The position numbers and the translations under genes are program-made. A stretch of 64,000 nucleotides of DNA from a virus, in IMG/VR virus record IMGVR_UViG_3300045988_088194; one strand, written 5' to 3'. This document shows, piece by piece, positions 40,299 to 60,927 of this stretch. Under the pieces are notes generated by a model. The model saw nothing but the letters and a program-made list of their open reading frames with translations. It was not told the DNA's origin and ran no database searches. How positions within the stretch are numbered: the first letter of the stretch is position 1; every line of letters starts with the position of its first letter.

Positions 40299-41813
40299 TT
40301 ATGCCTGAAGTATTGCAGGTATAATTGACATTGTTCTTGTAGGGTCAAGAACACAGATTCCAAGAGTTGCCATTCTGTGGAATGTTGCTGAATCCTCATC
40401 ATGGCTCATGTATGGATTACCCATCTGACCAGTAAATGGATTTCTAAGACCCCACTCATAGCCCCTGAACTCTGTCTGACCCTTGATAGCACACTTGAAG
40501 ATATTAGGCTGGTCCATTGTACCAATGTACATAATGTCATACCTATATGAGTATGCTACACCACCCTCTGGGTGAAGAATCTTGTTTCTTACTGGGTCAT
40601 CATAGAATGGGTCTACATCAATCTTAACCCTTACTCCATTAGGAGCCTTATACTCTACAAACTGGAAACCAGCTGAGAGAGCATTCTCATGAAGCTTGCT
40701 CTGAGTCTTCTGAACTACTCCAATAGAGTTATTGTCAAGTACAAACTGTGTCCAACCTGAAACTGTCTTGAGGACTTCCTTGTGGAACTGAATTGCTCCT
40801 CTTTCACCAGTCTTGATAACAAAGTATCTGTCATTGAAATCAAGCTTAGATGCTGAAAGTTCATAAAGAGCATCCTCAATAAGTTTAAGTGAGAAGTGGT
40901 TGTAGTACATTGTATTGGCTACTTCCATCTGCTCAAACAGACCTGCACCAGTTTTAATAGCCTCACCTGACTTACCAAAGTTAAGGTACTCACCATTACT
41001 GTTCCTGTTGGAAACACCCCAAGCAAGTACATTATTCTTTGCTTCTGAGAACTGAAGTTCAAGTTCATAGTCTACATAGTGCATCCACATATTAGTGGTA
41101 TCCTTAACAAGCTTTCCACCTTCAGTTTCCTTAGTAATAGGAATACCTACTGCAAGCTTCTTATTAAGCATTGAACCACCAACCTTGTGATGAATCCTGA
41201 TAGTAGACCACTCATTTCTCATAGAAACTGGTGAGCTGAATCTGATGTCACCAACCTTTCTTGAGAAACTTCTTTCTACTGGAGCATAACCAATAGAGAA
41301 CCTTTCTCCTGCAAGAAGTCTTTCTGCTGGTACACCCTTAGAGTTAGTACCAAAGACCTCTACCTTATAAACCGCATTAGTTCCCTCAAACCTTGCTTCA
41401 CCAAGCACCCTAAGTGGATATGCCTCATTGAGATTACCCCAAAGGATTTCTCCATCAGCAAACCAATCTTCTGGGAACACAAGATAGAATGGAGCATAAC
41501 CAGCACCTACATTTGCATGTCCATCAGTTACAACCTGTCCATTCTCATCCCTTGCTTCAACAAGTGGAATGTTTCTCCTTGAAGAACCAATCACATCCCA
41601 GTAATATTCATTGTCATCATCAAACTCCCTTGTTGGGAACTGATTGAGGAATGTGTCAAGGGTCTTACCTCTGTAGTAGGCAAGCAGCTGCACCATAAGG
41701 TTTGTAGCCTTCTGAGGTGCCAACTGGAAGATTTGTCCAAGGTGGTTTTCCTTGGTTGTACCCTTCCAGTGCTGGAAGCCTAACATCTGAAATTTACCAA
41801 GCTTTCCTGCCAT
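40299..41813 (-). CDS. major capsid protein (putative)
   Basis: 504-aa ORF directly after an acidic coiled-coil scaffold-like gene. Size and position fit the conserved TerL-portal-...-MCP order of crAss-like phages. No alignment was run. Confidence 0.6.
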   Translation of the reverse strand: MAGKLGKFQMLGFQHWKGTTKENHLGQIFQLAPQKATNLMVQLLAYYRGKTLDTFLNQFPTREFDDDNEYYWDVIGSSRRNIPLVEARDENGQVVTDGHANVGAGYAPFYLVFPEDWFADGEILWGNLNEAYPLRVLGEARFEGTNAVYKVEVFGTNSKGVPAERLLAGERFSIGYAPVERSFSRKVGDIRFSSPVSMRNEWSTIRIHHKVGGSMLNKKLAVGIPITKETEGGKLVKDTTNMWMHYVDYELELQFSEAKNNVLAWGVSNRNSNGEYLNFGKSGEAIKTGAGLFEQMEVANTMYYNHFSLKLIEDALYELSASKLDFNDRYFVIKTGERGAIQFHKEVLKTVSGWTQFVLDNNSIGVVQKTQSKLHENALSAGFQFVEYKAPNGVRVKIDVDPFYDDPVRNKILHPEGGVAYSYRYDIMYIGTMDQPNIFKCAIKGQTEFRGYEWGLRNPFTGQMGNPYMSHDEDSATFHRMATLGICVLDPTRTMSIIPAILQA

Positions 41814-43785: not shown

Positions 43786-44131
43786 AATCTAATAGTTTGA
43801 ACAAATCATCAAGCTCTGAGTCACTATAGGGGCATCTATTCTTACAGGATTCAATTGTACAGATTTTACCAATCATCTTGATGACTACACTCTTAAGTCT
43901 TATAACTTCAGACTTATTCTTGTCTACAATCTTTGAATACAAATCAAGTTTTCTGCCAAGGTCTTTAACCATGTCCTGATATATATCTAAAGAAGCCTTC
44001 ATATTAGCTATCTGTGTACTATCTACTTCTGCATTATACTTCTTCTTTGAGAATAGAAAAGTGAAAAATGCAGAGCAGAATGTAGTTACAATACCTATGC
44101 CTGCTGTAATTAATACCCCTAAATCCATCAC
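43739..44131 (-). CDS. holin-like membrane protein
   Basis: 130 aa with an N-terminal TM (LGVLITAGIGIVTTFCSAFFTFLF) followed by a charged coiled coil. Confidence 0.45.
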   Translation of the reverse strand: MMDLGVLITAGIGIVTTFCSAFFTFLFSKKKYNAEVDSTQIANMKASLDIYQDMVKDLGRKLDLYSKIVDKNKSEVIRLKSVVIKMIGKICTIESCKNRCPYSDSELDDLFKLLDFDTDETDYKENYNKE

Positions 44132-44763
44132 TCGATAATCTTTATATATTTTTCCTGTTTATTTATTATATAAGGACTCTTCTCAATTACTACTGTCTCA
44201 ATTATCTTATGTTTCTTTTGAAACAGTCTCCCCAGCCAGCACTTCTTAGGAGGTTTAATAGTCTCTTTCCTTAAACTCTGTACTACATACCTCTCTGATA
44301 TGAACTTAGGAGAGGCAATTACAGTAGAAGGATATTCAAGTTTTAGATTAAGAGAATACCATTTATCTCTTAAAGTAGTATCTATCTTAACTTCTGGATT
44401 TCTAAAAAGAGTATCTCTGAATATCAAGGTATCAGTCTTTTTGGCTTCAGATAACTGATATTCAAGTTCCTTTATGTTCTTGTTCTTAATTTTAAGTTCC
44501 TTTCTGACTTCATTCATCTTTATAATGATGGAGTCATTAATATAGTTTAACTGTTCTACTGTAAGCTGCAATACTCTTCCCCTATTACTAAGGGAATCAT
44601 TGTCAGCAAACAAAGCCTTCTCATTGGCTATACTTATTGACAAATCTTCCTTCAAACCATCTATTCTTGAAGACTGTAGTGATATAACACTAATCATACC
44701 AAGTATAAGAACAGCCACTCCTATGTATATCCAACTCTTAAGTTTCATATCTTTTTCCTCCAA
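44128..44763 (-). CDS. membrane-anchored coiled-coil protein (spanin/holin-associated candidate)
   Basis: 211 aa with an N-terminal TM (WIYIGVAVLILGMISVISL) followed by a coiled coil. Confidence 0.4.
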   Translation of the reverse strand: MEEKDMKLKSWIYIGVAVLILGMISVISLQSSRIDGLKEDLSISIANEKALFADNDSLSNRGRVLQLTVEQLNYINDSIIIKMNEVRKELKIKNKNIKELEYQLSEAKKTDTLIFRDTLFRNPEVKIDTTLRDKWYSLNLKLEYPSTVIASPKFISERYVVQSLRKETIKPPKKCWLGRLFQKKHKIIETVVIEKSPYIINKQEKYIKIIE

Positions 44764-44767
44764 TAGG

Positions 44768-44775
44768 CAAAGGTA
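44768..44775 (-). promoter_or_regulatory. -7 box TACCTTTG
   Basis: TAnnTTTG just upstream of ATG 44763 and directly after the terminator. Confidence 0.5.
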
Positions 44776-44785
44776 AGAAGTATAA

Positions 44786-44826
44786 ATAAAAAAAGCAAGA
44801 GGTTAAGTAGAACACTTAACCTCTTG
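44786..44826 (-). terminator. intrinsic terminator
   Basis: 13-bp stem CAAGAGGTTAAGT/ACTTAACCTCTTG (44796-44808 / 44814-44826), then TTTTTTTATTT on the minus strand. Confidence 0.8.
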
Positions 44827-44848
44827 TTAATTTTATTCTAATCTATGA

Positions 44849-46528
44849 TTAGGACAATGTCCAAGAATCATTAGATGTGATAGTTAATGTCTTAGTCTCA
44901 CCAGCTGCAATGAATGACATTGTATCAGGAGAGAGGTCAAGAGTTGAGCTTGAACCCTGCTGGTTGAATGTAATATCCTTAGTAGCAGTCTTACCACCTT
45001 CACCCTCAGCTGAGATTGTAACAACAAAGCCACCTCTTTCATGTGTTGTAGGGTTAAGACCAACAGTAACCTTACCAGTATTAGTCTCAAGTGAGAAGCC
45101 TTCCTTAGCAGTCTTAACTGTATAATCAGCAGAGAGCTGTACCTTATTGTCTGCTGGAGTAGCCTCAGTCCTTGTAGCACCAGAAGTGTAAGTAACTGTC
45201 TGCTTCATAGCAGGAACAATCTGGTAAGTCTCACCAGGGGCATTCAAGGATACTGGAGTAGCCTGACCAATAGTTACCTCACCATAAGTTGCAGAGTTAG
45301 CTGCCTGGTATACAGTAACTGACTTAGTAGCAGTCTTATCACCTGCACCTGTTGCAGTGATTGTGATAACACCTGCTTCAGTCCTTGCAGAAACTGCTGT
45401 ACCCTTAGAAGCTGCTGTAATAGCATCACTGTAGGTAACTGCAATAGCGTCAAATACAGGACTTGTAGAACCAGTGTCATTAGAAATGTTAACTGTGGCA
45501 CCTGAAGTGTAGCTAATTGTCTGAGTAGCAATAGCTCCCTCACCAGACCATGTGATGTTAGATGAACCAATGGAACCGCCTGATGCTGGAATATCACTAA
45601 CTGAAGGAACTCTACTTGAGAACTCAACATCACCGTAATTAATTATGTTAGCATCCTGCTCTACAGTAGCTGTTACAGGGTCTGCGGCTACTCCATTTAT
45701 TGTAAGATTAAGCCTAACCGTTGCAACGGTAGTTTTATCTGAAACAACGGTACCTTTTGAAGGAACTGTTACTACTCCATTATCCTTGTTCACAGATACT
45801 CCGTCTGCTCCAGAAACTTTGACATACCCCAATGTTATAGGATATGTATCAGAAAATATTGGGCTTACAATAGTTCCTCCGTTTGTCTTTGATTCATTCC
45901 AACCCCATTGCTGAGTGATTTGTAATCTACTATCAGGCATCACATCTCTTCCAGATGCTTCTACTAATGGATATTCAAAGCCTGAAACTACTGGTTTACT
46001 GTAATTCTTAACACCTGCTGCTTGAGTAATTGTAACTTCTTCTGAATATACATTACCTGCTGCGTTCATAACTACAGATTTAAACTCTCTAGTAGATTCT
46101 GATTTATTCTCTGGAATAGTTACAGTAATAGTGAAGTCATATATTGCAGATGCACCTGGGTCTCCATCTACAGCAGTGTCTTTAAAACCGTCCCAAGATT
46201 CATCAGTTACTCCTGCTACAGCAAGTTTAACTGGAAGGGAGCCATCTGCTGTATCGAATCTACATACAAGATTAGCAGAGTTAGACCTACCTTGAATAGT
46301 TACATTCTGTCCAATAGCAACTGCTGAATAGGATACTGTTTCAATAGTAATAACCTCAGCAGCACCTACCTGAGATACAGCTGTGGTATCAGTAGCTCCA
46401 CCTGCTGTTGTACCAGTAATAGTACCCTCTCTGGCAACTCTACCAGTGTAGGCAGCAGCAGTAATTTCACTTGAGCCATTCATGGAACCTTCTGTGGTTC
46501 CAATAGTAATCCATTTTGGTTTAGCCAT
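44849..46528 (-). CDS. BACON/Ig-like repeat surface protein
   Basis: The N-terminus KPKWITIGTTEGS...VAREGTITG is the second half of a BACON domain. There are internal ...TVYQ / ...FNQQ repeat ends. The C-terminus FIAAGETKTLTITSNDSWTLS is a first half. Confidence 0.7.
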   Translation of the reverse strand: MAKPKWITIGTTEGSMNGSSEITAAAYTGRVAREGTITGTTAGGATDTTAVSQVGAAEVITIETVSYSAVAIGQNVTIQGRSNSANLVCRFDTADGSLPVKLAVAGVTDESWDGFKDTAVDGDPGASAIYDFTITVTIPENKSESTREFKSVVMNAAGNVYSEEVTITQAAGVKNYSKPVVSGFEYPLVEASGRDVMPDSRLQITQQWGWNESKTNGGTIVSPIFSDTYPITLGYVKVSGADGVSVNKDNGVVTVPSKGTVVSDKTTVATVRLNLTINGVAADPVTATVEQDANIINYGDVEFSSRVPSVSDIPASGGSIGSSNITWSGEGAIATQTISYTSGATVNISNDTGSTSPVFDAIAVTYSDAITAASKGTAVSARTEAGVITITATGAGDKTATKSVTVYQAANSATYGEVTIGQATPVSLNAPGETYQIVPAMKQTVTYTSGATRTEATPADNKVQLSADYTVKTAKEGFSLETNTGKVTVGLNPTTHERGGFVVTISAEGEGGKTATKDITFNQQGSSSTLDLSPDTMSFIAAGETKTLTITSNDSWTLS

Positions 46529-46550
46529 AAATTAAATTTAATTTAATGTT

Positions 46551-46576
46551 TTTTAAAAAGGGGAGTAACACTCCCC
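46551..46576 (-). terminator. intrinsic terminator
   Basis: Stem GGGGAGT/ACTCCCC (46560-46566 / 46570-46576), then TTTTT on the minus strand. Confidence 0.7.
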
Positions 46577-46594
46577 ATAAATTATTAACAATTA

Positions 46595-48193
46595 TTATTG
46601 AATACTCCAAGAAGTATTAGAAGTAATTTGCACTGTTTCCTTTCCTCCCTCTGCACTAAATTCTAATGAAGATGGAACAATTTCTAATTGTTCAGGCTGT
46701 TTTTCTTGCTGTATAGTAGGAATATCAGAGTCTGCCTTAAGAGTTGTAGGAGCAGCTGAATTACTTGCATTACATCTGATAGTAGCAGTTCTCTGGGCTA
46801 AGTTTGTATTTTCAGACCAAGTGAATATTCCATTACCTTTAGAGGTAATGCCTTCTCCCTGTACTACCATCCATAGTGTACCAGTACTGTCAGAAGTTAC
46901 ATCCCTTATTTCTGTAGAGTTATCACTGTATCTAACAGAAACCATTGCCTTTAAAGCTATGTCTCCTCCTTTAAAAGAAACATTGTTTATTGGATTAGGA
47001 GAAGAATCTGCTTGGGTAATTGTAAGATTATCCCAAACAATCTCTGAGACTACTTCAATGTTCTTAGTTTCAGTTTCAGTAACTGTATAATCCTCTTCAT
47101 AAGTCTTACTTACTGCACTTGATATCTTAATGTGAACCTTTGTATTATAATCTACTGTGATTGAATCCCTAACAACACCATTTAATTCTACAGTTGGTTT
47201 AAGGCTGGCAGCCATAGGCATTGGAACTACAGCTACAGTAAGAGTAACCTGTTCAGCAACTAAAGTTATATCTTTAACAGTGTCTTCTGTGATTGTTTGA
47301 GTACCACTCTGTGGCTCATAATGAGGAGCTTCTACAGACCAAGTAACTTCAGTACCATTTTTAACAATTACTGAATTTGTTACTTTACCATTTATAGTCA
47401 CTACTGCATCTAAAGGCTTCAGGACATTTATGGTAAAATTAGATTCATCACTTCCTATAACATCAAGAGCAACTTTGAAAGTGGTTGAATTTTGAACAAC
47501 TTCACTACCACTCTTTGTTATATATCCACTTTTAGATACTTCCCAAGTTACTGTTGAGCCTTTATCTATTGTAATGGATTTTCCAGTAACTCCATTAAGT
47601 CTAACTGTACAATCATCTGGAATTGGGCTTACAGTAAATGTTACTTGTTCTTTACTAAGTTCAGGTCTAAGAGTTATATCTTTATCTACCAAAACAAACT
47701 CTTCATAAGTTACATATCCTTCAGCCTGTACTTTAACATTGACTGTAGAACCATTAACAACCTGCAAAGAACTTTGCTCTATGCCATTTATAAATACAGT
47801 TGCATTAGGAGTAACTGGTTCTACAGTGAGTGTATATTTAGTAGTTAATGTACTTAGTACCCTGTTGATATCCTCTAAACTTTTATCAATATTACCAAAG
47901 TGTATATCAGCTTCCTTTATAAATGTATTCAATGAAGTATTGATTTTAAGCACCTTCTCTTCAAGAATTCCTATTCTCTGAAGTGCATCTCCAATATCAC
48001 TATTTATATTTTGTCTTACAAAAGTATAGAGTTGGTCTAAGGTCATTGACCTGTTTTTCCCATCCTTTACAAAGGCTATAAAATCTTTCTTACTAATAGA
48101 TGTCCAATCATCCAGAGGTTTAAAATCTGAATCTTTTTTACACATTGCAGAAAGCTTTTTTGATATTTCTTGTATTTGTTGTAATGTAAACAT
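46595..48193 (-). CDS. fibre/decoration protein with about 4 PEGA-like repeats and a C-terminal half-BACON
   Basis: About 70-aa repeats (..TV.ING......V.NG..V...V...GY....). The C-terminus is LEFSAEGGKETVQITSNTSWSIQ. Confidence 0.65.
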   Translation of the reverse strand: MFTLQQIQEISKKLSAMCKKDSDFKPLDDWTSISKKDFIAFVKDGKNRSMTLDQLYTFVRQNINSDIGDALQRIGILEEKVLKINTSLNTFIKEADIHFGNIDKSLEDINRVLSTLTTKYTLTVEPVTPNATVFINGIEQSSLQVVNGSTVNVKVQAEGYVTYEEFVLVDKDITLRPELSKEQVTFTVSPIPDDCTVRLNGVTGKSITIDKGSTVTWEVSKSGYITKSGSEVVQNSTTFKVALDVIGSDESNFTINVLKPLDAVVTINGKVTNSVIVKNGTEVTWSVEAPHYEPQSGTQTITEDTVKDITLVAEQVTLTVAVVPMPMAASLKPTVELNGVVRDSITVDYNTKVHIKISSAVSKTYEEDYTVTETETKNIEVVSEIVWDNLTITQADSSPNPINNVSFKGGDIALKAMVSVRYSDNSTEIRDVTSDSTGTLWMVVQGEGITSKGNGIFTWSENTNLAQRTATIRCNASNSAAPTTLKADSDIPTIQQEKQPEQLEIVPSSLEFSAEGGKETVQITSNTSWSIQ

Positions 48194-48195
48194 TT

Positions 48196-48348
48196 CTATC
48201 TTTGTTTATAAGTTACTTGCAATGTCCAACTGTCATTAGATTCAACAAGGAGAGTTTTAGATTCATCTCCTTGTGTGTTGTAATTTAAAGATTCTGGAAG
48301 AAGCCTAATATAAGAAGTGGAATTATTCTTTAATAGGTTTCTAAACAT
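48196..48348 (-). CDS. 50-aa minigene encoding an isolated first-half BACON segment (below the track cutoff)
   Basis: Hand translation MFRNLLKNNSTSYIRLLPESLNYNTQGDESKTLLVESNDSWTLQVTYKQR. The ATG is 2 nt after the upstream stop, and the stop is 2 nt before the next ATG. Confidence 0.5.
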   Translation of the reverse strand: MFRNLLKNNSTSYIRLLPESLNYNTQGDESKTLLVESNDSWTLQVTYKQR

Positions 48349-48350
48349 GC

Positions 48351-48797
48351 TCATTTAAAAATCCCCCAAACAGCTAAATTATTCAAAACACTTACAACTA
48401 TTACAGAATTTGCTTCTGAAACTGGACTCTTGCCATCCTGCCACTTAATAGTGGAATCTCCAATTACTTTATGTACTGTCTCTCCTATTGTAATATAATA
48501 AATCACTTCATTAGTAAGAGAAGGATTAGAAGTTATCATATAATCTTCTGTAAGAGCAGGAATTTCATGGTAAGTAACTCCTCCACCAAATAATCTCCAC
48601 TTTCCAGTAGTAGCATCTACAGAGTTATTAGGGTCATATTTATATGTATTCCTGTCTTCTTCACAGAATGAAATATGCCCAGGGTCAAGAAAATTCTCTC
48701 TATATTCCTTCATTTCTGCAAGAGTCTTAAAGGAGTCTCTTGTGAAATTAGGTTGAATACCTTTGAATGCTATATTAGAACTAAATGCTAATGCCAT
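48351..48797 (-). CDS. fibre-associated protein (hypothetical)
   Basis: 148-aa ORF following the fibre gene. Confidence 0.45.
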   Translation of the reverse strand: MALAFSSNIAFKGIQPNFTRDSFKTLAEMKEYRENFLDPGHISFCEEDRNTYKYDPNNSVDATTGKWRLFGGGVTYHEIPALTEDYMITSNPSLTNEVIYYITIGETVHKVIGDSTIKWQDGKSPVSEANSVIVVSVLNNLAVWGIFK

Positions 48798-48805
48798 AGT
48801 GCGTA

Positions 48806-50050
48806 TTACTTAAAGTTGAATTTAAATGTATCCTCATAATTAGGCTGAGTACTTCTATATATATAACATTCCTCTCCACCTATAACTTTTGTAGCAACAG
48901 GCTCTGGAGTTGTACTTGGTGTACTAATAACCCAGTTATCAGCTGCTGCACCTCCAGCATTAACATCTTGAACTTGTGTAAGAGTTCCAAATCTCTTAGG
49001 ATAAATGTATGTGCAAATACCTTCTACAGGAATTGTAATAGCAACATTATATGCTTCTTTACTTGTAGCTACTTCCTTAGTAAAACCATTTACTACCTCA
49101 TCTGAGAGATTATTGAAATCTGTGTCTAAAGGAGCCGCTCCATAATACCTATAATATGTTTTCTTGAAAGTGACTGTAGTGCTTCCATTATAGGTTTTAC
49201 CCTTGTAAACTACTACCACTCTATAAGTTGTAGTTGTAGTTACATCAGTGAATACCTTGTAGTTCACTGATGGGTCTACTGTTTCTCCATTTACAGTTAC
49301 AGAGTCTGGAGTAAGAGTCTGACCATTCTTCTGAAGTTTCCATGTTACAGTGATTACTTGAGTAGTACCTTCATCATATGTTCCTCCTCCAGATACAGAA
49401 AGGGTAGTAGGAAATACTTTTTCATCAAGTTGGGCAAGCAATTCATTCATTGCATTGATTTGCAATGTGATTACCTTATTCTGAACTGGATTTACAGAAG
49501 TTTCACTAAGAGCATCATCTACAGTTACAGGACTTCCTCCTTGGATTTCTATATTCCCTTCACCAGTTATTTCCTGACCATTGATAGTCTTAAACTTCTG
49601 GTTAGAAATAGCTTCACTTAACTCATCCTTAGAAGCTAAACCAGAAGTGTCAGGGATATCACTTTTAAGAGCATAGTTTCCTTTTGGCTGATAAAGTTCC
49701 TGTGCTTTTACTTCAGACAACAGTCCTTCTATTGAAGGTATATCAGACTTTTGAGCATATTCAAGAAGTGCTGTATTTAAGGCATCTTCTGTAACATAGT
49801 TTTTAAGGTCTGGAATTATAATCCCCAATTCTTCAAGAGAGAGGTTCCCTTCAAGAACTACATTATTAATCTTAGGTTTATTCTCTAAGTCATTGTAGTT
49901 TGAAGTTCCTTCTCCAGAACTGGTACCTATTTTTCTCCATCCTCCATCATACACATGAAGAGTGTTGATATTGTTATCACCTGCCTTTATCCAAAGGACA
50001 TTATGTAATGCAGGAGGAGTAGTAGAAAATACAATATCTCTGATTATCAT
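48806..50050 (-). CDS. fibre protein
   Basis: The motif YNDLENKPKINNVVLEGNLSLEELGI is typical of phage fibre shafts. It lies downstream of the portal gene. Confidence 0.55.
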   Translation of the reverse strand: MIIRDIVFSTTPPALHNVLWIKAGDNNINTLHVYDGGWRKIGTSSGEGTSNYNDLENKPKINNVVLEGNLSLEELGIIIPDLKNYVTEDALNTALLEYAQKSDIPSIEGLLSEVKAQELYQPKGNYALKSDIPDTSGLASKDELSEAISNQKFKTINGQEITGEGNIEIQGGSPVTVDDALSETSVNPVQNKVITLQINAMNELLAQLDEKVFPTTLSVSGGGTYDEGTTQVITVTWKLQKNGQTLTPDSVTVNGETVDPSVNYKVFTDVTTTTTYRVVVVYKGKTYNGSTTVTFKKTYYRYYGAAPLDTDFNNLSDEVVNGFTKEVATSKEAYNVAITIPVEGICTYIYPKRFGTLTQVQDVNAGGAAADNWVISTPSTTPEPVATKVIGGEECYIYRSTQPNYEDTFKFNFK

Positions 50051-50058
50051 AGCTAAAA

Positions 50059-52482
50059 TTATTTACTACTTACTGGTTTCTTGTTTATTTGTTTCTCCTT
50101 TAATCTGGCATCCTCTTCCTGCTTATCTCTCTGTACCTTGAGTTTCTCCCTTTCAAAGGCCATTTTAGTATCAAACTCTCTTATCTGCTCCCTAAGTTTT
50201 GCAGCTGCTTCTTCAGACATAGGCTCCTGAATACCATCATTAATGTCTACTTCTGAGTCCTGAAGTTTAGATTGAGCATTAATCTGGGCAACAAGAATCT
50301 TGGTCTCATTATCTCTCTGATTAAGCATATCTTCCTGCTGCATCTTCTGCATTTCAGTCTGCTGTTGCATCTGAGCTTGTTGCTGCTGAGCCTGAAGCTG
50401 CTGCTGTTGCTGCTGTTGAGCCATTTCCCTTATCTTCCTTTCATCATTCTCAACCATTCTTTGCTTTTCAGCAAGGGACGAAGCACCATATATCTTCATT
50501 ATAGTTGAGAATGAAAGGGTCTGATTCTGTAGGGCTGCCTGAGCAAGTGTCTCAAGTTGAGACTGTAACTTTTGAAGTCCTTCAGAGTTGTCTACTACAA
50601 GACCATAGTCAGCTTCTGCAAATTCATCTCCATCTATATTTACTATCTGCATTGAATTGTCAGACAGTATATACTGGAACTTCTTGCTTCTTCCTTTAAG
50701 GGCTACTTTTGCAGTTTCAAGGAAGCACTCAAGGGCTCTCCTCTTCACATCATCATGTATAGTAAAGAGCCATTCTGTTATATGTGATGACTGGAGAGTT
50801 GCTCTCTCAACACCACCTACAGTCTCTCTATTGCTTATCTGACCTTCTCTCTGTCTTGTGATACCTGCAACTTCAGACATCTCAAGCTTGATAAACTCAA
50901 GAAGGTTTATATATTGCTGTATGTTATTACCCCAGTCAGCATCAATCACACCTGTAGAGGCATTATTAAGTGCTCCTGCAAGCTTTCCTGTTGCAGCACC
51001 TATATTTCCCTCTTTGAAGGAATCTACTACAGCAATTCCATTAACCTTGGCATAGTACAACCATTTCTCTATTTCCCATCCTTTTGGAACCTTAGCAAGG
51101 TCAAGCTGTATAATCTTACCCCAGTTCTTAGCAATCATCTTGTTAAGTCTATCATGAACAGCATCATACAAATAGTTATACTGCTTCATCATATCAACAA
51201 GAGAGAAAGGTCTTGATTCATTAAGGTTATATATAGAACCTACTATACCAAAATGACATCTTGATGGATTTGAAAGCCTGTTGTACTGTACAACTCTTGG
51301 TCTCATATTGACATATATATCCTGACCAATCTTTGTTCCTTCCCAAGCTTCATTAATCCAGAATGTCTGCTCTTCTTCTCCTAAGTCAGGATTACAGATA
51401 TAAGTCTCTGGGTAGAAGTTGAAAGTCTCTTCACCTGTTTCAGGGTCATAGGACTTTACCTTCTTTATCTTCCTTCTTGATTTCCAGTACATTCTTAGAA
51501 CTCTAAGATTACCTGCAAGGTCATAAGGAAGCAGGGAGTTTACCACTGCATCTGAGAACAGGTTAAGTGGGTCAAAGTAGAAACCATCAGTAACTACTTC
51601 ATCCCCTACCATATTATTATTTACAAATCCATACCTCTCATCTATATTATCCATAGAGTCTGAATAGGCTTGACCTATATGGTCAGGCAGCTTTTCAATA
51701 TACTCCATATCCTTTTTAGAGAGAACATCATAGAAAGTATCTATAACCCTTCCTGGGCTCCAGTAATCTTCTATGATTATAACATCTGCATCTTCTATCC
51801 TATTGGAATAGCCAGACTTGAACACTCTTATCTTAAGAGGATTTACCCTTTCAATGACTGGTTCCCCTCCTACTATATCACACTGATAAATCTCTTCACC
51901 CACAGTCATGGCATCCATGAAACCATTGTTGAAGAGAAGTGGCATATTATATTCCTTTATATAATGATTGAGAAGAGCATTTGCTCTTATCTCTCTCATA
52001 TCCTGCCATTGGTATGTATAGTAGTCATTAAGCTTCTCTAACTCCTGATTGAAATCTTCCTCAGAGAGTGAGTTGTCAGCAATCAACTGTTGAAGTGAAG
52101 CAAGAAGCTGCTCCTTCTTATGGTCTTCAACCTCTGTTACAGCATTAGGATTAGTCACTACCACCTTAAAGTCAAATACCCTCTTTGACTCCTCACCTCT
52201 AAGAACATTCAGTTTGGAGTTCATAATAGGATAGTGCTGTATTCTGTCAGGTATGTAGCCTACCTTTATGCTTTCTGGGTTTATGATTGCTTCCATGTCC
52301 TCCATGTGGAGCTTTCCATTAAGGAGGTCATAGTTTATCTTCTTATGTATTGTGCTTTTCCTTACAGGAGAATAGTTGAAGAATGTCTTGGAATCTGCCC
52401 AATCCATACATTGCTTCCTCCACTTCTTTGTCTTCTGTGAGAAGGGCAGTTGTTGCCTTGGAAAATTAATAAATTCTGACAT
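50059..52482 (-). CDS. portal protein (putative)
   Basis: 807-aa ORF directly downstream of TerL, with a Gln-rich, charged C-terminal tail. Confidence 0.65.
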   Translation of the reverse strand: MSEFINFPRQQLPFSQKTKKWRKQCMDWADSKTFFNYSPVRKSTIHKKINYDLLNGKLHMEDMEAIINPESIKVGYIPDRIQHYPIMNSKLNVLRGEESKRVFDFKVVVTNPNAVTEVEDHKKEQLLASLQQLIADNSLSEEDFNQELEKLNDYYTYQWQDMREIRANALLNHYIKEYNMPLLFNNGFMDAMTVGEEIYQCDIVGGEPVIERVNPLKIRVFKSGYSNRIEDADVIIIEDYWSPGRVIDTFYDVLSKKDMEYIEKLPDHIGQAYSDSMDNIDERYGFVNNNMVGDEVVTDGFYFDPLNLFSDAVVNSLLPYDLAGNLRVLRMYWKSRRKIKKVKSYDPETGEETFNFYPETYICNPDLGEEEQTFWINEAWEGTKIGQDIYVNMRPRVVQYNRLSNPSRCHFGIVGSIYNLNESRPFSLVDMMKQYNYLYDAVHDRLNKMIAKNWGKIIQLDLAKVPKGWEIEKWLYYAKVNGIAVVDSFKEGNIGAATGKLAGALNNASTGVIDADWGNNIQQYINLLEFIKLEMSEVAGITRQREGQISNRETVGGVERATLQSSHITEWLFTIHDDVKRRALECFLETAKVALKGRSKKFQYILSDNSMQIVNIDGDEFAEADYGLVVDNSEGLQKLQSQLETLAQAALQNQTLSFSTIMKIYGASSLAEKQRMVENDERKIREMAQQQQQQQLQAQQQQAQMQQQTEMQKMQQEDMLNQRDNETKILVAQINAQSKLQDSEVDINDGIQEPMSEEAAAKLREQIREFDTKMAFEREKLKVQRDKQEEDARLKEKQINKKPVSSK

Positions 52483-52562: not shown

Positions 52563-54818
52563 TTACTTTTTGCTAAATTTCATCAATCTATCATCATAAT
52601 TAATCCTGAAGAAAGGGTCATTACCTAAATAATCAGCTGATACCTTATCATCATCCCTCTTTATATCTCCCTGATACAGAATTACTTTCTCCTCTCTATA
52701 CAGCATTACCATACCTAATGCCCTTACCCTATCCACATTTACATCTGGATTAAACAGAATAAGCTCCTTAAGGAGAGCCCTATTTCTTATTCTATAGAGA
52801 TTGAATATGGTAGTCTCAACTTGCTCACCATCTACTTCCTGTACAACTGTTATTGGCTTAAGCAACCAATCCCTTATAAGAGTGTTAGCATAGTTGTTAA
52901 TAGGAGCTGTTGCATTCACTCCTTTTGATTTATTACCCACTCCTATGACTTTTATAAGGTCCTTATCCTTAAGATATTCAGGAGTATCTGCAAGAAGATA
53001 TGTGCAGTTCATTCTTGAGAAGTATGCAAATATACCTTTCTTATTGTTCTCATAGAGGCACTTTGCATTATAGAACAGACAAAGTTTCCTAACCATCTCA
53101 AAGTTCTCATCAGCATGTGTTTTCCTTCCAGTATACTCTGCTACTATCTGGTCTGTCCATAGGTCAAGAACAAAGGTTGAAGTGAGAGAAAGTGTAGCTG
53201 ACTCATCATCATCAACAGGGTCATGACCTATAATATACCTGTCAGGAAATACCCTACCCTCTCTGTTCTTCTCTGGAAGATTGAATATCTCAAGTGCACC
53301 TTCTACCTTATTATCTTTTAGAGGGAAATCTCTGATTGGCAAATCAGTAGTAGGACAGAACTCTACTTCTCCCTTGGCATTCTGTATCAGAGTACCTGTG
53401 TAGACATCATCAAACTCTCTTGGATTATTATCCAACTGATTAAGTCTTTCGTTCAGGTCTGTAACTGGAAACAGATTACCCTTTGTCTTAAGGATAGCTT
53501 CCTGTGGAGTTATAGGGATTTCAGCAATTCTCTTGGTTATTGAGTTGATGTCAGTAGAGTTATACTTTACAAGATACCTATCCCTAAGTATCTCAAGAAG
53601 AGCCTTTGTTACATCTGAATTTCCATCCTTATCATAACATTCTGCCCTATTCATATAACCAGGGAAGAAGAAAGTAAATAACTTTCTACCCTGACCCTCC
53701 TTATCATAGACATTTGGAAGGTCCTGCATATTATATCCAACAGGGTTATACATAATCTCCTGAGCTGAAGCAAAGTCAGACTCCTTATCTCCAGCAGTAC
53801 CATACATGAAGATAAGACCATATATATTCTCTCCATCCTCCACTGATGGTCTAAGAGTATTGTAAAGACCAAGAAGTCTTGGAAATGTACCAAACTCCTC
53901 TATAAGATAGAGTACACCTCTTGAACCTCTCAACTTAGACTCATCATCCTTGGATGTGATGCCTATTACTGAGTTAAGAGTTCCCTTCTTAGTACCACTA
54001 TCAAGGTCCTGGTAGCCCATAGTCCACTGAAGATTCTGCATGGTATTGACCAGTCTCTTTGAAGGGAACTGGGTATTCTGAGCACAGAAGTCTATATATC
54101 CAGAAAACATGTCAAGTATCTGGTTAGCACCTGACAGATACTTCTTTTCAGAGGCAGTTACAACACACTGTACTTTCTTGTTTACTTTAATAGATTCACC
54201 AAGTATGAACCTTTTTGCAAGAAGTGATGCACCAAAATAACTTTTTCCTTTGCCTCTTGAAGCTAGTTCAGCAGCATGATGCCCATTTTTTCTGGCTATA
54301 TTAAGATAATGTGATAAATAATAATGACCCTCCCAGAATTTAGGAAAGTCTATAACCCTATTAGCTCTTCTTCCTCCTTTTTCATCCTTTCTATCCTGAA
54401 GAATAGGACAATAATTGAGGAAAAAATATAGGTCACCAGTTATCCATTCACCATCAGAAGGTCTGACATAACCTTCATAGCATCTTCTTATTTCCTCTCT
54501 AATCCACTTACCAAACTCAGAATTTGGGTTTGGATTAGGCCTCAGGTCTGTAAATCTTCCAGTCTCCTTATAATGTATTGCTGTTGGTCTGAAGTAATCA
54601 CTATCCTCTATTATATGGGGCTTTGTTATATCAATTATAATCTTGCCTTCTTCATCCCTTGGAAGGTCACAAGCCCTTGGTCTGTTTTCTGAAATCAGAC
54701 TCCTTATGTATGGGGTGTTATTCACGAAGTCCCAAAATTGGTCCTGTATCTCTTGGGGTTCATTTTCCAGGTTGAGGAGTTCATAAGGAGTCTGGTATCT
54801 ATTCCATCTTATATCCAT
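52563..54818 (-). CDS. terL: terminase large subunit
   Basis: Walker A ASRGKGKS, Walker B-like VLYLIEEFG, and a C-terminal Asp-rich nuclease segment IIGHDPVDDD. 751 aa. Confidence 0.85.
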   Translation of the reverse strand: MDIRWNRYQTPYELLNLENEPQEIQDQFWDFVNNTPYIRSLISENRPRACDLPRDEEGKIIIDITKPHIIEDSDYFRPTAIHYKETGRFTDLRPNPNPNSEFGKWIREEIRRCYEGYVRPSDGEWITGDLYFFLNYCPILQDRKDEKGGRRANRVIDFPKFWEGHYYLSHYLNIARKNGHHAAELASRGKGKSYFGASLLAKRFILGESIKVNKKVQCVVTASEKKYLSGANQILDMFSGYIDFCAQNTQFPSKRLVNTMQNLQWTMGYQDLDSGTKKGTLNSVIGITSKDDESKLRGSRGVLYLIEEFGTFPRLLGLYNTLRPSVEDGENIYGLIFMYGTAGDKESDFASAQEIMYNPVGYNMQDLPNVYDKEGQGRKLFTFFFPGYMNRAECYDKDGNSDVTKALLEILRDRYLVKYNSTDINSITKRIAEIPITPQEAILKTKGNLFPVTDLNERLNQLDNNPREFDDVYTGTLIQNAKGEVEFCPTTDLPIRDFPLKDNKVEGALEIFNLPEKNREGRVFPDRYIIGHDPVDDDESATLSLTSTFVLDLWTDQIVAEYTGRKTHADENFEMVRKLCLFYNAKCLYENNKKGIFAYFSRMNCTYLLADTPEYLKDKDLIKVIGVGNKSKGVNATAPINNYANTLIRDWLLKPITVVQEVDGEQVETTIFNLYRIRNRALLKELILFNPDVNVDRVRALGMVMLYREEKVILYQGDIKRDDDKVSADYLGNDPFFRINYDDRLMKFSKK

Positions 54819-57757: not shown

Positions 57758-57776
57758 AGTATTGAATATTAATCAG

Positions 57777-57859
57777 TTGCGGGAGGGGGACTTGAACCCC
57801 CGAGGCTAAAGAGCAGGAGCTTATGAGACTCCCCAGATACCAACTTCTGACATCCCGCA
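57777..57859 (-). tRNA. type-II (Leu-like) tRNA with anticodon CAU
   Basis: Acceptor TGCGGGA/TCCCGCA with A73. Anticodon arm GGAGT-CTCATAA-GCTCC. 14-nt variable arm TGCTCTTTAGCCTC. T arm GGGGG-TTCAAGT-CCCCC. Folded by hand. Confidence 0.6.
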
Positions 57860-57869
57860 ATATTTATTG

Positions 57870-57941
57870 AGCCTTCTATTGGAATTGAACCAATATCTAC
57901 TGATTACAAGTCAGTTATAATAACCTTTATACTAAGAAGGC
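57870..57941 (-). tRNA. tRNA-Thr(UGU)
   Basis: Acceptor GCCTTCT/AGAAGGC. Anticodon arm ACTGA-CTTGTAA-TCAGT. T arm ATTGG-TTCAATT-CCAAT. Confidence 0.8.
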
Positions 57942-57985
57942 AACAACACTCTTATAGTATGCTTATAAGCCTTAAGAGTTTATTG

Positions 57986-58068
57986 TGGGGATAGAGGGAC
58001 TTGAACCCTCAAGAGACATGCTCATGGGTGTTTAAGACCCACATGTTTACCAGTTTCATCATATCCCC
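57986..58068 (-). tRNA. tRNA-Leu(UAA)
   Basis: Acceptor GGGGATA/TATCCCC with A73. Anticodon arm TGGGT-CTTAAAC-ACCCA. Long variable arm. T arm GAGGG-TTCAAGT-CCCTC. Confidence 0.8.
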
Positions 58069-58075
58069 AATCCTT

Positions 58076-58534
58076 TTAATAGCTTCTTGTTGAATCACAA
58101 AGTTCAAACAAGTACTTGTACTTCCATATGTTGTGAATGAAAGTCTCACACTCTGACCTCACTCCTGCATATTCCACTGAATCTGGAATTGATGAGTAGA
58201 ATTTAAGGGTCAAGTTTTTTACCTCAAGAATGAACTCCATTGCATTAAGAGTGTCACTCTCAGTTCCAACTATCTTGTTTGGAGCTATATGACCAAGTAT
58301 TCCTTGCATCTCTTCTGCAAGAGAATCTTGATAGTCACTTAAAATCTCAAGAAACTCATCCAGATATACATGAATATTCCTCTTTGGAGCTGCCCAGTGA
58401 AGATTCTTACATTTAGTCTTCCATCCTTCAAGTCTATTTATAAAACTTATAAAGAATGAGAAGGTATCTGGAGTCACATCTTTTGGTGCCTGACCAGGAG
58501 CTGGTATAGGGTCTAAAAGTAAATCTCCTATCAT
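58076..58534 (-). CDS. Dps/ferritin-like four-helix-bundle protein
   Basis: KNLHWAAPKRNIHVYLDEF...DYQDSLAEE. Dps-type ferroxidase ligands (H, H, D, E) with H-to-D spacing of 15 and D-x3-E preserved. Confidence 0.55.
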   Translation of the reverse strand: MIGDLLLDPIPAPGQAPKDVTPDTFSFFISFINRLEGWKTKCKNLHWAAPKRNIHVYLDEFLEILSDYQDSLAEEMQGILGHIAPNKIVGTESDTLNAMEFILEVKNLTLKFYSSIPDSVEYAGVRSECETFIHNIWKYKYLFELCDSTRSY

Positions 58535-58542
58535 TTTCTTTG

Positions 58543-58550
58543 CAAATATA
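58543..58550 (-). promoter_or_regulatory. -7 box TATATTTG
   Basis: TAnnTTTG 8 nt upstream of ATG 58534, which would give a nearly leaderless transcript. Confidence 0.4.
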
Positions 58551-58594
58551 AGTATTTTATTTTAAACTTCCAAATAAAATTGTAAATTTTTTAG

Positions 58595-58668
58595 TGGAGA
58601 CTGTGGGAGTTGAACCACACTTTTCTGGATTTTCAGTCCAGCACATTTACCACTAATGTTAAATCTCC
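58595..58668 (-). tRNA. tRNA-Phe(GAA)
   Basis: Acceptor GGAGATT/AGTCTCC with A73. D stem ACAT/ATGT. Anticodon arm CTGGA-CTGAAAA-TCCAG. Confidence 0.85.
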
Positions 58669-58672
58669 AAAG

Positions 58673-58755
58673 TGGGAGTAAAAGGATTTGAACCTATTCA
58701 GTCTGAGACACCAGATTTACAGTCTGGCACACATCACCATCTGTGCAGTACTCCC
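58673..58755 (-). tRNA. tRNA-Tyr(GUA), type II
   Basis: Acceptor GGGAGTA/TACTCCC with A73. Anticodon arm CCAGA-CTGTAAA-TCTGG. Long variable arm. Confidence 0.8.
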
Positions 58756-58829
58756 AGTATATATAGTGTTCAAGAAAGTTCTTTTAGAGTAAAAAGGGTT
58801 TATCTCTTAAATCAGCTATGGAAGCATAG

Positions 58830-58902
58830 ACTCCAGGGTAAGAATTGAACTTACACAAAGTAGTTTTGCGGACTACTGCATTAACCTTTCTGCCACCTGG
58901 AG
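58830..58902 (-). tRNA. tRNA-Cys(GCA)
   Basis: Acceptor CTCCAGG/CCTGGAG with U73. Anticodon arm GTAGT-CCGCAAA-ACTAC. T arm GTAAG-TTCAATT-CTTAC. Confidence 0.8.
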
Positions 58903-58908
58903 AATCAG

Positions 58909-58981: not shown

Positions 58982-58983
58982 AG

Positions 58984-59056: not shown

Positions 59057-59062
59057 ATTATG

Positions 59063-59135: not shown

Positions 59136-59138
59136 AAG

Positions 59139-60315: not shown

Positions 60316-60927
60316 TTATCTATCAGCAAAGGATATCTTATATAAATCTACATAAATAGTTTCTTCTGTATTGACAACTGAAACTGCAATCCCAGTTTCA
60401 TTTTGATAATCTATATATAGGTCAGAAGCAGGAAAGTCACTTGGGAAAAAGTCTATTCTTCCTGTTTCTGGAATAGAGCCAGAATATGAAGAAGTAGACT
60501 GCCCCAGAGGATTAGTCCATCTTATGACCAGAGATGGTGCATTCTTATCCCATCCATCATTAGGGTAAGTATCTGCAAGGTAGTTTACTACATCATGTAT
60601 GTACTTTGCATCTATATTAAATTCTGCTGCGAATTCAAGAGTAGCACTGCCCTCCGTATGATATATTATCTCTGGATAAGATATCCCATAGTTCTGGCTA
60701 AAGGTAACATCATTTATAACTGAACTTACATCCTGAGATATCCTTACTGCCCCTACTATAGGGACACCTGCCTGTGCTATATTCAATGTGGCTTGTACTC
60801 CATTAGCAGTCCTTGCAACCATCTGAGATTTCCTCTCCCCTCCCATGTTTCCCATGGCTGAAATATTAACTGTTTCTACCCCTTCCGTGCCAGAGGTCTT
60901 GTCAAGTGTAATCCAATTAGGTTTCAT
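60316..60927 (-). CDS. protein starting with a second-half BACON segment
   Basis: N-terminus MKPNWITLDKTSGTEGVETVNISAMGNMGGERKSQMVART (W-I-T...SG...N...R pattern). Confidence 0.55.
   Translation of the reverse strand: MKPNWITLDKTSGTEGVETVNISAMGNMGGERKSQMVARTANGVQATLNIAQAGVPIVGAVRISQDVSSVINDVTFSQNYGISYPEIIYHTEGSATLEFAAEFNIDAKYIHDVVNYLADTYPNDGWDKNAPSLVIRWTNPLGQSTSSYSGSIPETGRIDFFPSDFPASDLYIDYQNETGIAVSVVNTEETIYVDLYKISFADR

Follow-up and report, generated by a model that had tools for sequence, protein, structure and literature searches.

Ig-like folds and modular docking ends are used in several described systems to join proteins. BACON domains (Pfam PF13004, and the viral BACON_2, PF19190) are small Ig-like domains whose structure is represented in BoGH5A (PDB 3ZMR), and all described BACON domains are single-chain. 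In crAss-like gut phages, BACON/Ig-like 'modular adhesins' (PMC13370021, 2026) and BACON tandem repeats (PMC6949934, 2019) have been described near structural genes, with a probable role in adhesion to glycans or mucus, and such proteins have recently been linked to epithelial and mucus adhesion (PMC13370021). The dimeric head fibre gp29 (HFD) of crAss001 has an N-terminal region, a coiled coil and one sandwich (Bayfield et al. 2023, PMC10172136). In chaperone-usher pili, and by strand exchange in the type V pili of Bacteroidia (FimA/Mfa1), an incomplete Ig-like fold in one subunit is completed by a segment of the next, giving a non-covalent fibre whose links are shared domains. Engineered split Ig-like domains such as SpyTag/SpyCatcher, split from CnaB2, reconstitute one beta-sandwich from two fragments and serve as universal connectors between unrelated cargo proteins. 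In the T4 long tail fibre (gp34-37 joints) and the anchor-branch tailspikes of Klebsiella, CBA120 and G7C phages, several gene products assemble in series or as branches, and conserved docking ends flank variable bodies and double as recombination boundaries. Here we examined a 64,000-nucleotide stretch of a crAss-like gut phage (IMG/VR record IMGVR_UViG_3300045988_088194; this whole stretch is called the window), in which single BACON domains appear as two halves encoded on separate genes.

Half-domains at the termini of the encoded proteins

An earlier note, made from the sequence alone, had claimed that BACON-type domains are split exactly at gene boundaries, with three products ending in the first half and two beginning with the second, and this observation was confirmed for all five termini (Table 1). 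We call the first half, at a protein's C-terminus, the C-half or socket, and the second half, starting at residue 1, the N-half or plug. The C-halves comprise about the first 33 residues of the domain and the N-halves the remaining 55 or so. The C-half of the minigene is TSYIRLLPESLNYNTQGDESKTLLVESNDSWTLQ, followed by VTYKQR and the stop. The 532-aa protein ends in ITSNTSWSIQ and the 559-aa protein in ITSNDSWTLS, whereas the 559-aa and 203-aa proteins begin with MAKPKWITIG and MKPNWITLDK, respectively. Two small corrections apply. The minigene, given before as 50 aa, can be read as 52 aa from the ATG at 48354 or 50 aa from the ATG at 48348, and because relatives start MFRNLL either start is possible. 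It also has 6 residues after the half-domain, whereas the other two proteins end 3 residues after the tryptophan.

Table 1. Features of the half-domain genes and their surroundings in the window
Feature	Coordinates (strand)	Half-domain coordinates	Description
148-aa gene	48351..48797 (-)		Always precedes the minigene and is translationally coupled to it; possible partner or anchor of the minigene (inference only)
Minigene, 50/52 aa	48196..48354 (-)	C-half 48217-48318	Short conserved head (MS)MFRNLL, C-half, 6-residue tail; start overlaps the stop of the 148-aa gene (ATGA); socket only
532-aa base protein	46595..48193 (-)	C-half 46598-46696	N-terminal anchor or coiled-coil region, repeats of the PEGA-like head-fibre-dimeric sandwich, C-half as last 33 residues; socket only
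Spacer	46529..46594 (-)		66 nt; second TAA, three further in-frame stops, intrinsic terminator hairpin at 46560-46576, A/T-rich leader before the ATG
559-aa extension protein	44849..46528 (-)	N-half 46364-46528 (residues 1-55); C-half 44852-44950 (last 33 residues)	String of about 5 Ig/cadherin-like sandwiches between the halves; plug and socket
Terminator hairpin	44796..44826 (-)		Follows the 559-aa gene and marks the end of the fibre cassette block; lysis genes follow
203-aa tip-type protein	60316..60927 (-)	N-half 60766-60927 (residues 1-54)	Unrelated C-terminal domain after the N-half; 12-15 kb away from the sockets, behind two small HExxH-like genes; plug only

Whether profile alignment would show complete small domains rather than halves had been set out in advance as a way for the observation to fail, and the result was halves. 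In a Pfam search, residues 5-56 of the 559-aa protein aligned to BACON_2 columns 42-94 of 94 (15.0 bits) and residues 4-54 of the 203-aa protein to columns 42-93 (15.8 bits), both below the 25-bit gathering threshold, and the C-termini of the 532-aa protein and the minigene gave no hit on their own. None of these proteins therefore matches the whole profile above threshold by itself. Only joined halves passed: 532C+559N covered columns 2-94 at 40.2 bits (E 3e-10), in agreement with the canonical domain that the note had recreated from these two ends, while 559C+203N scored 27.7 bits and miniC+203N 30.7 bits. HMMs built from the two halves found exactly 3 C-halves and 2 N-halves in all six frames of the window, all at termini.

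The break is a clean nick in a loop. In 344 of 412 unsplit domains, 7 residues lie between the two hallmark tryptophans. Split proteins have 3 residues after the first tryptophan (119/119 and 17/17) and 4 before the second, not counting Met (64/67). In the AlphaFold2 model of the 559-aa protein, residues 1-35 have pLDDT below 50 with no secondary structure, while the middle is above 90; the isolated N-half is thus not predicted to fold. The C-half has intermediate confidence (pLDDT 61-80) and might lean on the neighbouring domain when unpaired. Foldseek matches the body of this protein to protocadherin-like rods.

The stops and hairpin that the note had placed between the 532-aa and 559-aa genes are present, and they bear on the possibility that recoding produces one continuous polypeptide. 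The two genes are in the same frame, 66 nt apart, with a hairpin between them, which superficially resembles T4 gene 60, and in the related locus L004 the frame is open between the 417-aa gene and the next gene. However, the spacer together with the 532-aa gene's own stop carries five in-frame stop codons, beginning with a TAATAA double stop, and translates as two stops, LLIIYGECYSPF, stop, KTLN, stop, I, stop, F. The hairpin, GGGGAGTgttACTCCCC+TTTTT, has a T-tract and is a terminator. Among related loci, gaps range from an overlap or 2 nt up to 123 nt and the frames differ, and every plug gene keeps its own ATG and the MAKP start. No matching take-off and landing codons of programmed bypass were seen by eye in the sequence. 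Stop-codon reassignment is not supported either, since the 532-aa and 559-aa genes end in TAA TAA and TAA rather than TAG or TGA, and the 15 tRNAs include no suppressor. Readthrough, frameshift or bypass is thus very unlikely.

The DNA similarity between half-domain ends is also real, although the positions given in the note (44853 and 48228) shift slightly. The 21-nt sequence CAATGTCCAAnnnTCATTAGA occurs as a direct repeat at 44855-44875 and 48220-48240, against 0.02 expected by chance, and it is what the shared peptide SNDSWTL would give.

Conservation, cassettes and a natural fusion

The split termini are widely conserved. All 120 listed homologues of the 559-aa protein start MAKP.WIT-like and end SND.W.LS, and 119 of 120 homologues of the 532-aa protein end in a C-half, with 3 residues after the tryptophan. 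Of the 150 best 50%-identity representatives, 73 start with the N-half at residue 1, and 21 of those also end with a C-half. The minigene is conserved as a 48-81-aa ORF in 19 protein clusters and at the same position in all related loci, and its pairing with the 148-aa gene is present in related loci L001-L009, L014, L016, L017, L021 and L022. The 203-aa protein has no close relatives in IMG/VR, but a positional homologue of 188 aa (P0219) is found in L020. The termini are the most constrained parts of the proteins, with pN/pS of 0.10-0.27 against 0.45-0.65 in the middle. Synonymous divergence is low there too (pS 0.11, against 0.4-0.5 in the middle), and part of the conservation may therefore reflect recombination rather than protein constraint. 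The same junctions appear in more than 1,000 independently assembled homologues from several sources and in 20 related loci (22 were retrieved in all). An artefact of assembly, sequencing or gene calling, for which there is nothing beyond the general possibility, is all but excluded by this replication.

Related genomes differ by whole cassettes inserted or removed exactly at these junctions, and base, extension and tip genes vary in number. In L005 and L006, the hairpin that ends the cassette block here is followed by an extra plug-only gene (170 aa). Nucleotide homology among loci starts at the ATG of the 559-aa gene, whatever lies upstream, and the upstream sequence is not conserved among loci carrying different upstream cassettes. 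In 15 distinct locus architectures, by our tally, 21 of 32 plug genes lie directly downstream of a socket-ending gene, and chains run from 1 to 4 modules. The other 11 have no socket gene directly upstream, for example the 203-aa gene, and the 551/554-aa genes that sit behind a tip gene in L001-L004 and L009. Sockets and plugs do not balance, with 3 against 2 in the window and 4 against 2-3 in L021 and L022. Different socket sequences (QTKGSWTIE, TSNTSWSIQ, NSNTSWSIE) all precede the same plug type, and no pairing code is visible. All cassette genes in the window are on one strand, the shared 21-nt sequence is a direct rather than an inverted repeat, and no recombinase lies among the neighbours, which does not fit invertible cassettes of the Mu Gin or P1 Cin type or shufflons, although no dedicated inverted-repeat search was run. 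The variation seen is at the level of whole cassettes and ordinary divergence; diversity-generating retroelements were not examined.

The absence of fused or split variants among relatives had also been named as evidence that would count against the idea, and a fused variant was found. P0162 (920 aa, locus L010) is a 532-like base fused in frame (SNSNWEFD-MAKPSWITLDK) to a 559-like protein through an intact domain. The AlphaFold2 model of the junction domain has pLDDT 94.2 and 9 strands, and the junction lies in a loop, with 4 strands before it and 5 after. Its best PDB fold match by Foldseek is 3ZMR, whose N-terminal domain is a BACON domain (E 8e-7, rmsd 2.5 over 95 columns). The two-chain version encoded in the window itself was not modelled.

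A proposed two-chain junction

Our favoured explanation, held with reasonable but not full confidence, is that the fibre proteins of this phage join end to end through a non-covalent, two-chain BACON domain. In this view the upstream protein ends with the first four strands of the sandwich (SN.SW + 3 residues) and the downstream protein begins with the remaining five (M-AKPxWIT). After removal of the initiator Met the two ends would abut in the loop between the two tryptophans, and the assembled domain would be an ordinary BACON domain with one backbone nick. The 532-aa protein and the minigene would be socket-only bases, the 559-aa protein a plug-and-socket extension and the 203-aa protein a plug-only tip. 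Gene order usually mirrors chain order, and in the window the most likely chain is 532 to 559 and perhaps to 203. Every module shares the same junction sequence, so the junctions would also act as break-and-join points where cassettes are gained, lost and swapped between related phages. The halves, their clean complementarity, their conservation, the cassette polymorphism and the natural fusion are direct results of this analysis. That the halves pair in trans in the virion, which protein pairs with which, and that the chain is a head fibre or adhesin are inferred; neither inter-chain prediction nor experiment was part of this work, and this includes the pairing of the 559-aa C-terminus or the minigene with the 203-aa N-terminus that the note had proposed. 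The note had offered trans-complementation of half-domains and recombination handles as two possible explanations, and its interpretation is supported, since the evidence favours both and they are not alternatives.

Proteins that carry both halves, namely the 559-aa family and the 200-aa modules, might instead pair their own two ends, within one chain, as a reciprocal head-to-tail dimer or as a homopolymer. The 559-aa family always carries both halves, nearly invariant, the 551/554-aa genes of L001-L004 and L009 lack an adjacent upstream socket gene, and L018 has tandem paralogous plug-and-socket modules. On the other hand, the natural fusion links a head-fibre base to a 559-type N-half, and single-ended proteins of both polarities exist in the same genomes and cannot complete the domain on their own. 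AlphaFold2 does not close the 559-aa protein in cis, and its N-half stays disordered. The body of the protein is an extended rod of sandwiches like a cadherin ectodomain, so its ends are far apart. Homopolymers or reciprocal dimers are not excluded, but self-complementation appears unlikely.

It is similarly unlikely that the half-domains are only scars or handles, left by gene fission and cassette shuffling inside BACON repeats, kept because the shared DNA promotes exchange, and unpaired in the proteins. The cassette polymorphism at the junctions, the start of DNA homology at the ATG, the low pS at the termini and the 21-nt identity between two C-half ends would agree with this. However, pN/pS is lowest at the termini, the 3+4=7 loop arithmetic is kept in diverged families that share no DNA identity, and 73 representative clusters at 50% identity or less keep the same start. 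In addition, unpaired half-sandwiches with an exposed hydrophobic core would be a liability, and the fused relative is predicted to fold as one domain.

A more far-reaching reading, which is doubtful but compatible with the data, is that gut crAss-like phages and at least one other phage lineage use a universal nicked-BACON plug and socket as a combinatorial assembly system. Any plug could seat in any socket. Genomes encode more sockets than plugs, and some plugs lie far from the fibre locus; virions would therefore carry mixed, programmable chains of adhesin modules on their heads. The socket-only minigene would act either as a minimal anchor or as a chaperone-like cap that holds a plug until exchange, a phage analogue of donor-strand exchange.

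If the halves pair in trans, separate proteins would share one small domain instead of docking through complete adaptor domains, an undescribed way to build and reshuffle phage fibres in one of the most abundant virus groups of the human gut. It would account for why these fibre loci are so mosaic, because every module has the same ends, and would predict which hypothetical genes form one fibre and in which order. Half-domains score below Pfam thresholds, so these proteins are annotated poorly. A natural, compact connector of about 33 + 55 residues might also be useful for engineering phage surfaces and protein assemblies.

Comparison with described systems

The 532-aa protein carries three or more copies of the gp29 sandwich (PF25641, E 5e-34, 116.3 bits against a cut-off of 30, in 3 stretches; 48% identity to gp29 residues 52-116) and has the same layout of N-terminal region, coiled coil and sandwich. 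In contrast, gp29 is 118 aa in the published description (the RefSeq ORF translates to 122 aa) and has one sandwich and no BACON half. Homology to its capsid-binding N-terminus (residues 1-58) was not found, as BLASTP aligned only gp29 residues 47-118 and capsid-binding residues 1-46 show no detectable similarity to the 532-aa protein; location in winged hexons, or elsewhere on the virion, was not measured. In the gp20-gp37 region examined, crAss001 has no detectable homologue of the 414-aa, 148-aa, minigene or 559-aa proteins.

We found no published description of this arrangement, and term searches of the papers on modular adhesins (PMC13370021) and BACON tandem repeats (PMC6949934) did not turn up half-domains at termini or inter-protein completion, although the domain family and phage group are the same. 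The T4 fibre joints and anchor-branch tailspikes use complete folded adaptor domains or trimeric interfaces, and we know of no case of a single small domain shared between two chains. SpyTag/SpyCatcher and similar connectors are man-made and locked by an isopeptide bond, whereas the split described here is natural; an isopeptide-forming triad was not looked for. Pili donate a single strand into a groove, whereas here the fold is cut roughly in half (4 + 5 strands). Their partners are repeats of one pilin, whereas here they are different proteins with different bodies, and no chaperone, usher or protease genes were recognised in the called-gene Pfam annotations of the loci retrieved. The proposed junction would work in a similar way but is not a member of the donor-strand systems. 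The closest relationship is with the BACON domain itself. The sequence motifs are the same (SN.SW, KP.WIT, SG.GN, R.G.ITV), the joined halves match the full profile and the predicted structure of the natural fusion superposes on 3ZMR, but here the domain is encoded on two genes and would have to be assembled from two polypeptides.

Half-domains at the ends of the fibre proteins

The region lies in the late, leftward operon of a crAss-like phage, whose major capsid protein is 81% identical to that of Bacteroides phage crAss001 (Steigviridae). The gene order on the minus strand is terminase, portal, a 414-aa protein with a trimeric-head-fibre-like N-terminus, a 148-aa protein, the 50/52-aa minigene, the 532-aa protein, the 559-aa protein, lysis genes, scaffold and major capsid protein. 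The earlier note described half-domains of the BACON type at the ends of these proteins, and this observation held when the termini were re-verified by translation. The minigene, the 532-aa protein and the 559-aa protein end with ...L.V.P..L.F...G..K.L.V.SN.SW + 3 residues (the C-half), with 6 further residues in the minigene, and the 559-aa and 203-aa proteins begin with M(A)KP.WIT...SG.... (the N-half). HMMs built from the two halves found three C-halves and two N-halves in all six frames of the window, and nothing else. The similarity at DNA level that the note had seen between two C-half ends is also real, consisting of 21 nt found at two sites against 0.02 expected, and it encodes the shared peptide SNDSWTL. 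In the window, GC and AT skew change sign at two positions, matching the switch between rightward and leftward gene blocks.

Coordinates of the features in the window and in related loci (L numbers are loci retrieved for comparison)
Feature	Locus	Position	Strand
Terminase	window	52563-54818	minus
Portal	window	50059-52482	minus
148-aa gene	window	48351-48797	minus
Minigene	window	48196-48354	minus
Major capsid protein	window	40299-41813	minus
21-nt identity, two sites	window	44855-44875 and 48220-48240	
Terminator hairpin with T-tract, spacer between the 532-aa and 559-aa genes	window	46560-46576	
Second terminator after a socket gene	window	44796-44826	
Two small genes upstream of the 203-aa gene	window	60924-61633	
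Cluster of 15 tRNA genes	window	57776-59864	minus
Sign changes of GC and AT skew	window	18000-20000 and about 62000	
85-aa minigene homologue	L014	4728-4985	
Four consecutive genes starting with N-halves	L018 (also L019)	5377-9714	
212-aa gene with GIY-YIG-like start	L004	9567-10205	
212-aa gene with GIY-YIG-like start	L005	9454-10092	
133-aa hydrophobic gene	L016	5598-5999	
Two plug genes with divergent N-halves	L021	10500-13574	

Profile alignment had been proposed in advance as the way to find out whether the terminal segments are complete small domains, and it showed that they are halves. Pfam aligned residues 5-56 of the 559-aa protein and residues 4-54 of the 203-aa protein to columns 42-94 of the 94-column viral BACON profile, both below threshold, whereas joining a C-half to an N-half gave end-to-end matches of 40.2, 27.7 and 30.7 bits against a cut-off of 25. 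An AlphaFold2 model of a natural single-chain version, the fused protein P0162 treated below, has pLDDT 94.2 and nine strands, with the junction in the loop between strand 4 and strand 5. The best PDB fold match of that model is the xyloglucanase BoGH5A, the reference BACON structure (E 8e-7, rmsd 2.5 over 95 columns). In an Ig-like sandwich both sheets mix early and late strands, and neither half should therefore be stable alone. Consistent with this, in the AlphaFold2 model of the whole 559-aa protein (58-sequence alignment) residues 1-35 have pLDDT below 50 and no secondary structure, while the body has pLDDT around 90 or above. The same model does not predict closure of the protein on itself in cis, and the body resembles extended cadherin-like rods. 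A monomer prediction cannot exclude head-to-tail self-association, which would explain the 551/554-aa genes that have no socket gene upstream (we call C-half-ending genes sockets and N-half-starting genes plugs).

The cut is a clean nick. In 412 unsplit domains from the multi-BACON proteins found in the profile search described below, the two hallmark tryptophans are 7 residues apart in 344 cases. Split proteins have 3 residues after the first tryptophan (119/119 in the 532-aa family and 17/17 plug-and-socket representatives) and 4 residues before the second, not counting the initiator Met (64/67). Unsplit relatives even carry the same loop sequence, for example SWTLT-AKPQW. Ala in second position favours Met removal, and the two chain ends would then rebuild the loop exactly.

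Conservation of the junctions and exchange of cassettes

The termini are conserved far beyond this phage. The 559-aa protein has 1,298 homologues at E <= 1e-3, and all 120 of those listed begin MAKP.WIT-like and end SND.W.LS, although the bodies are only about 72% identical. Among ten genomic copies, pN/pS is 0.27 in the first 40 codons and 0.10-0.25 in the last 55, compared with 0.45-0.65 in the middle. Of the 120 listed homologues of the 532-aa protein, 119 end in a C-half, of several sequence types, and the exception is truncated inside the half. A search with the minigene found only ORFs of 48-81 aa, in 19 clusters, and no fusion to a plug protein. A profile of the two window N-halves was searched against 1.84 billion representative proteins, and the hits fell into two classes. 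One class is long proteins with internal complete BACON repeats, and the other comprises 73 of the best 150 representatives (at 50% identity or less to each other), in which the match runs from residue 1 of the profile to residue 1 of the protein. Of these 73, 52 are plug-only, mostly 160-230 aa, and 21 also end in a C-half.

Phage GenBank records gave no DNA match for 44000-50100 and no protein match for the 559-aa protein, and only the PEGA-like domain of the 532-aa protein hit crAss001-like phages. PHROGs contained no family for the 532-aa, 559-aa, minigene, 203-aa or 148-aa proteins. No close relatives of the 203-aa protein were found in IMG/VR, so whether relatives carry it or fuse it to a socket was not examined. 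Directly upstream of the 203-aa gene, two small genes carry metalloprotease-like motifs, HELFHA in the 104-aa product and HESIHTEQM in the 121-aa product, and the same trio occurs in locus L020; no function or link to the plug protein has been assigned to them.

Nine IMG/VR loci (L001-L009) about 70% identical to the window show chains of cassettes.

Gene order in the window and nine related loci, each beginning with the 148-aa gene and then the minigene(C); numbers are protein lengths, C marks a gene ending in a C-half and N a gene starting with an N-half
Loci	Following genes
window	532(C), 559(N,C)
L005, L006	532(C), 554(N,C), 170(N)
L004, L007, L009	417(C), 211(N,C), 222 or 361(N), 554(N,C)
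L001, L002, L003, L008	314 or 463(N) two nucleotides after the minigene, then 551(N,C); no 532-type gene

More distant loci gave further chains, namely 539(C), 557(N,C), 635(N,C), 364(N) in L021; 520(C), 553(N,C), 430(N,C) in L022; 45(C), 209(N,C), 214(N) in L017; 85(C), 532(N,C), 347(N) in L014; and 502(C), 217(N) in L012. A different phage lineage (L018), which carries RuvC-like and DEAD-helicase genes nearby, has 201(N,C) followed by 807(N), and 210(N,C) followed by 210(N,C). Of its four consecutive genes starting with N-halves, three are about 200-aa paralogues that also end in C-halves (SNASWVIE, SNASWVIE and SNCSWQIE before the stop), and the system is therefore not confined to crAss-like phages. 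By our tally over 15 distinct architectures, 21 of 32 plug genes lie directly behind a socket-ending gene, and the block always sits between the portal/head-fibre genes and the lysis genes. We compared socket tails and plug heads in about a dozen adjacent pairs by eye and saw no pairing code; different sockets precede the same plug.

Some loci depart from the simple pattern. The 85-aa minigene homologue of L014 holds two tandem C-halves (...DVVTEAHWVIDG... and ...ISAGENWSIM before the stop), which would make a possible double socket or branch point; only the second C-half is terminal. The 635-aa and 364-aa plug genes of L021 have divergent N-halves that lack the first tryptophan strand (MAESLIKGGFTLTPKTGTGN..., MTFCKIPPSYTSGTGN...) but still match the half-HMM from position 8-11 onward. 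The plug may tolerate loss of its first strand. In L016, another locus with a plug-and-socket gene, a 133-aa, strongly hydrophobic (multi-pass membrane-like) gene sits between the minigene and the 568-aa plug-and-socket gene, an odd insertion in a fibre locus. L004 and L005 carry a 212-aa gene with a GIY-YIG-like start (MRGVIYKYTNLVNGKVYIGQT...) after the holin-like gene, probably a mobile homing endonuclease, which the window lacks there, since the 130-aa and 155-aa genes overlap.

Alignment of the 200 nt around the start of the 559-type gene in seven loci showed near-identity from the ATG onward, whereas the upstream sequences are unrelated, depending on which cassette precedes. Synonymous divergence is about 0.11 at the 5' end and 0.4-0.5 in the middle. 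The junctions are therefore also the places where cassettes are exchanged, which is the expected consequence of every module sharing the same ends. The view that the half-domains are only recombination handles explains the mosaicism but not the protein-level constraint in families that no longer share DNA identity.

A fused relative and the stops at the junction

The earlier note had asked for relatives with fused variants, and one such protein exists. P0162 (920 aa), encoded in locus L010 directly after terminase and portal, has the N-terminus and PEGA-like repeats of the 532-aa family, reads ...SNSNWEFD-MAKPSWITLDK..., continues into a 559-like body and ends in another C-half. At the DNA level gat is followed directly by atg with no stop. 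By Rosetta-stone logic this indicates that the 532-type C-half and the 559-type N-half belong to one domain. No fusion appeared among the 120 listed homologues of the 532-aa protein, and the split form is the rule.

It is unlikely that recoding produces one continuous polypeptide from the split genes. The stops are TAA and come in multiples. The 66-nt spacer between the 532-aa and 559-aa genes is in frame, but there are five stops counting the 532-aa gene's own, beginning TAATAA, and the spacer also carries a canonical terminator hairpin. Spacers range from overlaps to 123 nt, the frames differ between loci, and every plug gene keeps its own ATG. Readthrough, frameshift and bypass were considered for each junction type and rejected for lack of conservation, and no suppressor tRNA is present among the 15 tRNAs of the window. 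An artefact is excluded by replication.

Proposed assembly and comparison with known systems

Of the two explanations offered in the earlier note, trans-complementation of half-domains to dock fibre subunits and recombination handles for swapping cassettes, both are supported and they do not exclude each other. In the mechanism that we propose, a base protein is anchored on the virion. The 532-aa protein has gp29-type sandwiches and a layout similar to that of the crAss001 dimeric head fibre, but its N-terminal anchor is not detectably homologous, so that a head location is inferred. The terminal half-sandwich of the base would be completed by the N-terminal half of the next protein, giving a non-covalent joint; this step is likewise an inference and has not been shown, as docking between chains was neither modelled nor tested by experiment. 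Extensions would repeat this, and plug-only proteins with diverse C-terminal domains would end the chain, as inferred from architecture and synteny. Sockets outnumber plugs in the window (3 against 2), about 40 kb of the genome lies outside it, and no partners have been identified for the 559-aa C-half, the minigene or the 203-aa protein. More speculatively, the terminators after socket genes may set decreasing amounts of distal modules.

The role of the minigene is also a matter of speculation. It is a minimal socket with a conserved head, (MS)MFRNLL, and might be a small anchor or a cap for free plugs. In L001-type genomes it directly precedes a tip gene. The 148-aa gene, with the conserved C-terminus ...NNLAVWGIFK, always directly precedes it and is coupled to it (ATGA overlap in the window). 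In L016 the same C-terminal domain is fused to a trimeric-head-fibre-type N-terminus (162 aa), and in L017 to a 268-aa protein, which suggests that the 148-aa domain and the minigene work together.

Term searches of papers on BACON domains in crAss-like phages and on the crAss001 structure did not turn up half-domains, and broader literature searches, which did not reach most subscription-journal papers, found no description of split BACON domains. The principle of completing an Ig-like fold with a segment of the neighbouring subunit is known from chaperone-usher and type V pili, and from engineered split domains. Those systems are defined by single-strand donation with a chaperone/usher or protease, or by an isopeptide bond, and these defining features do not apply here, although the absence of chaperone, usher and protease genes rests on the called-gene Pfam annotations of the loci retrieved and no isopeptide-forming triad has been looked for. 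What differs from them is a naturally bisected BACON domain, which in our reading is used as a general connector of phage fibre modules.
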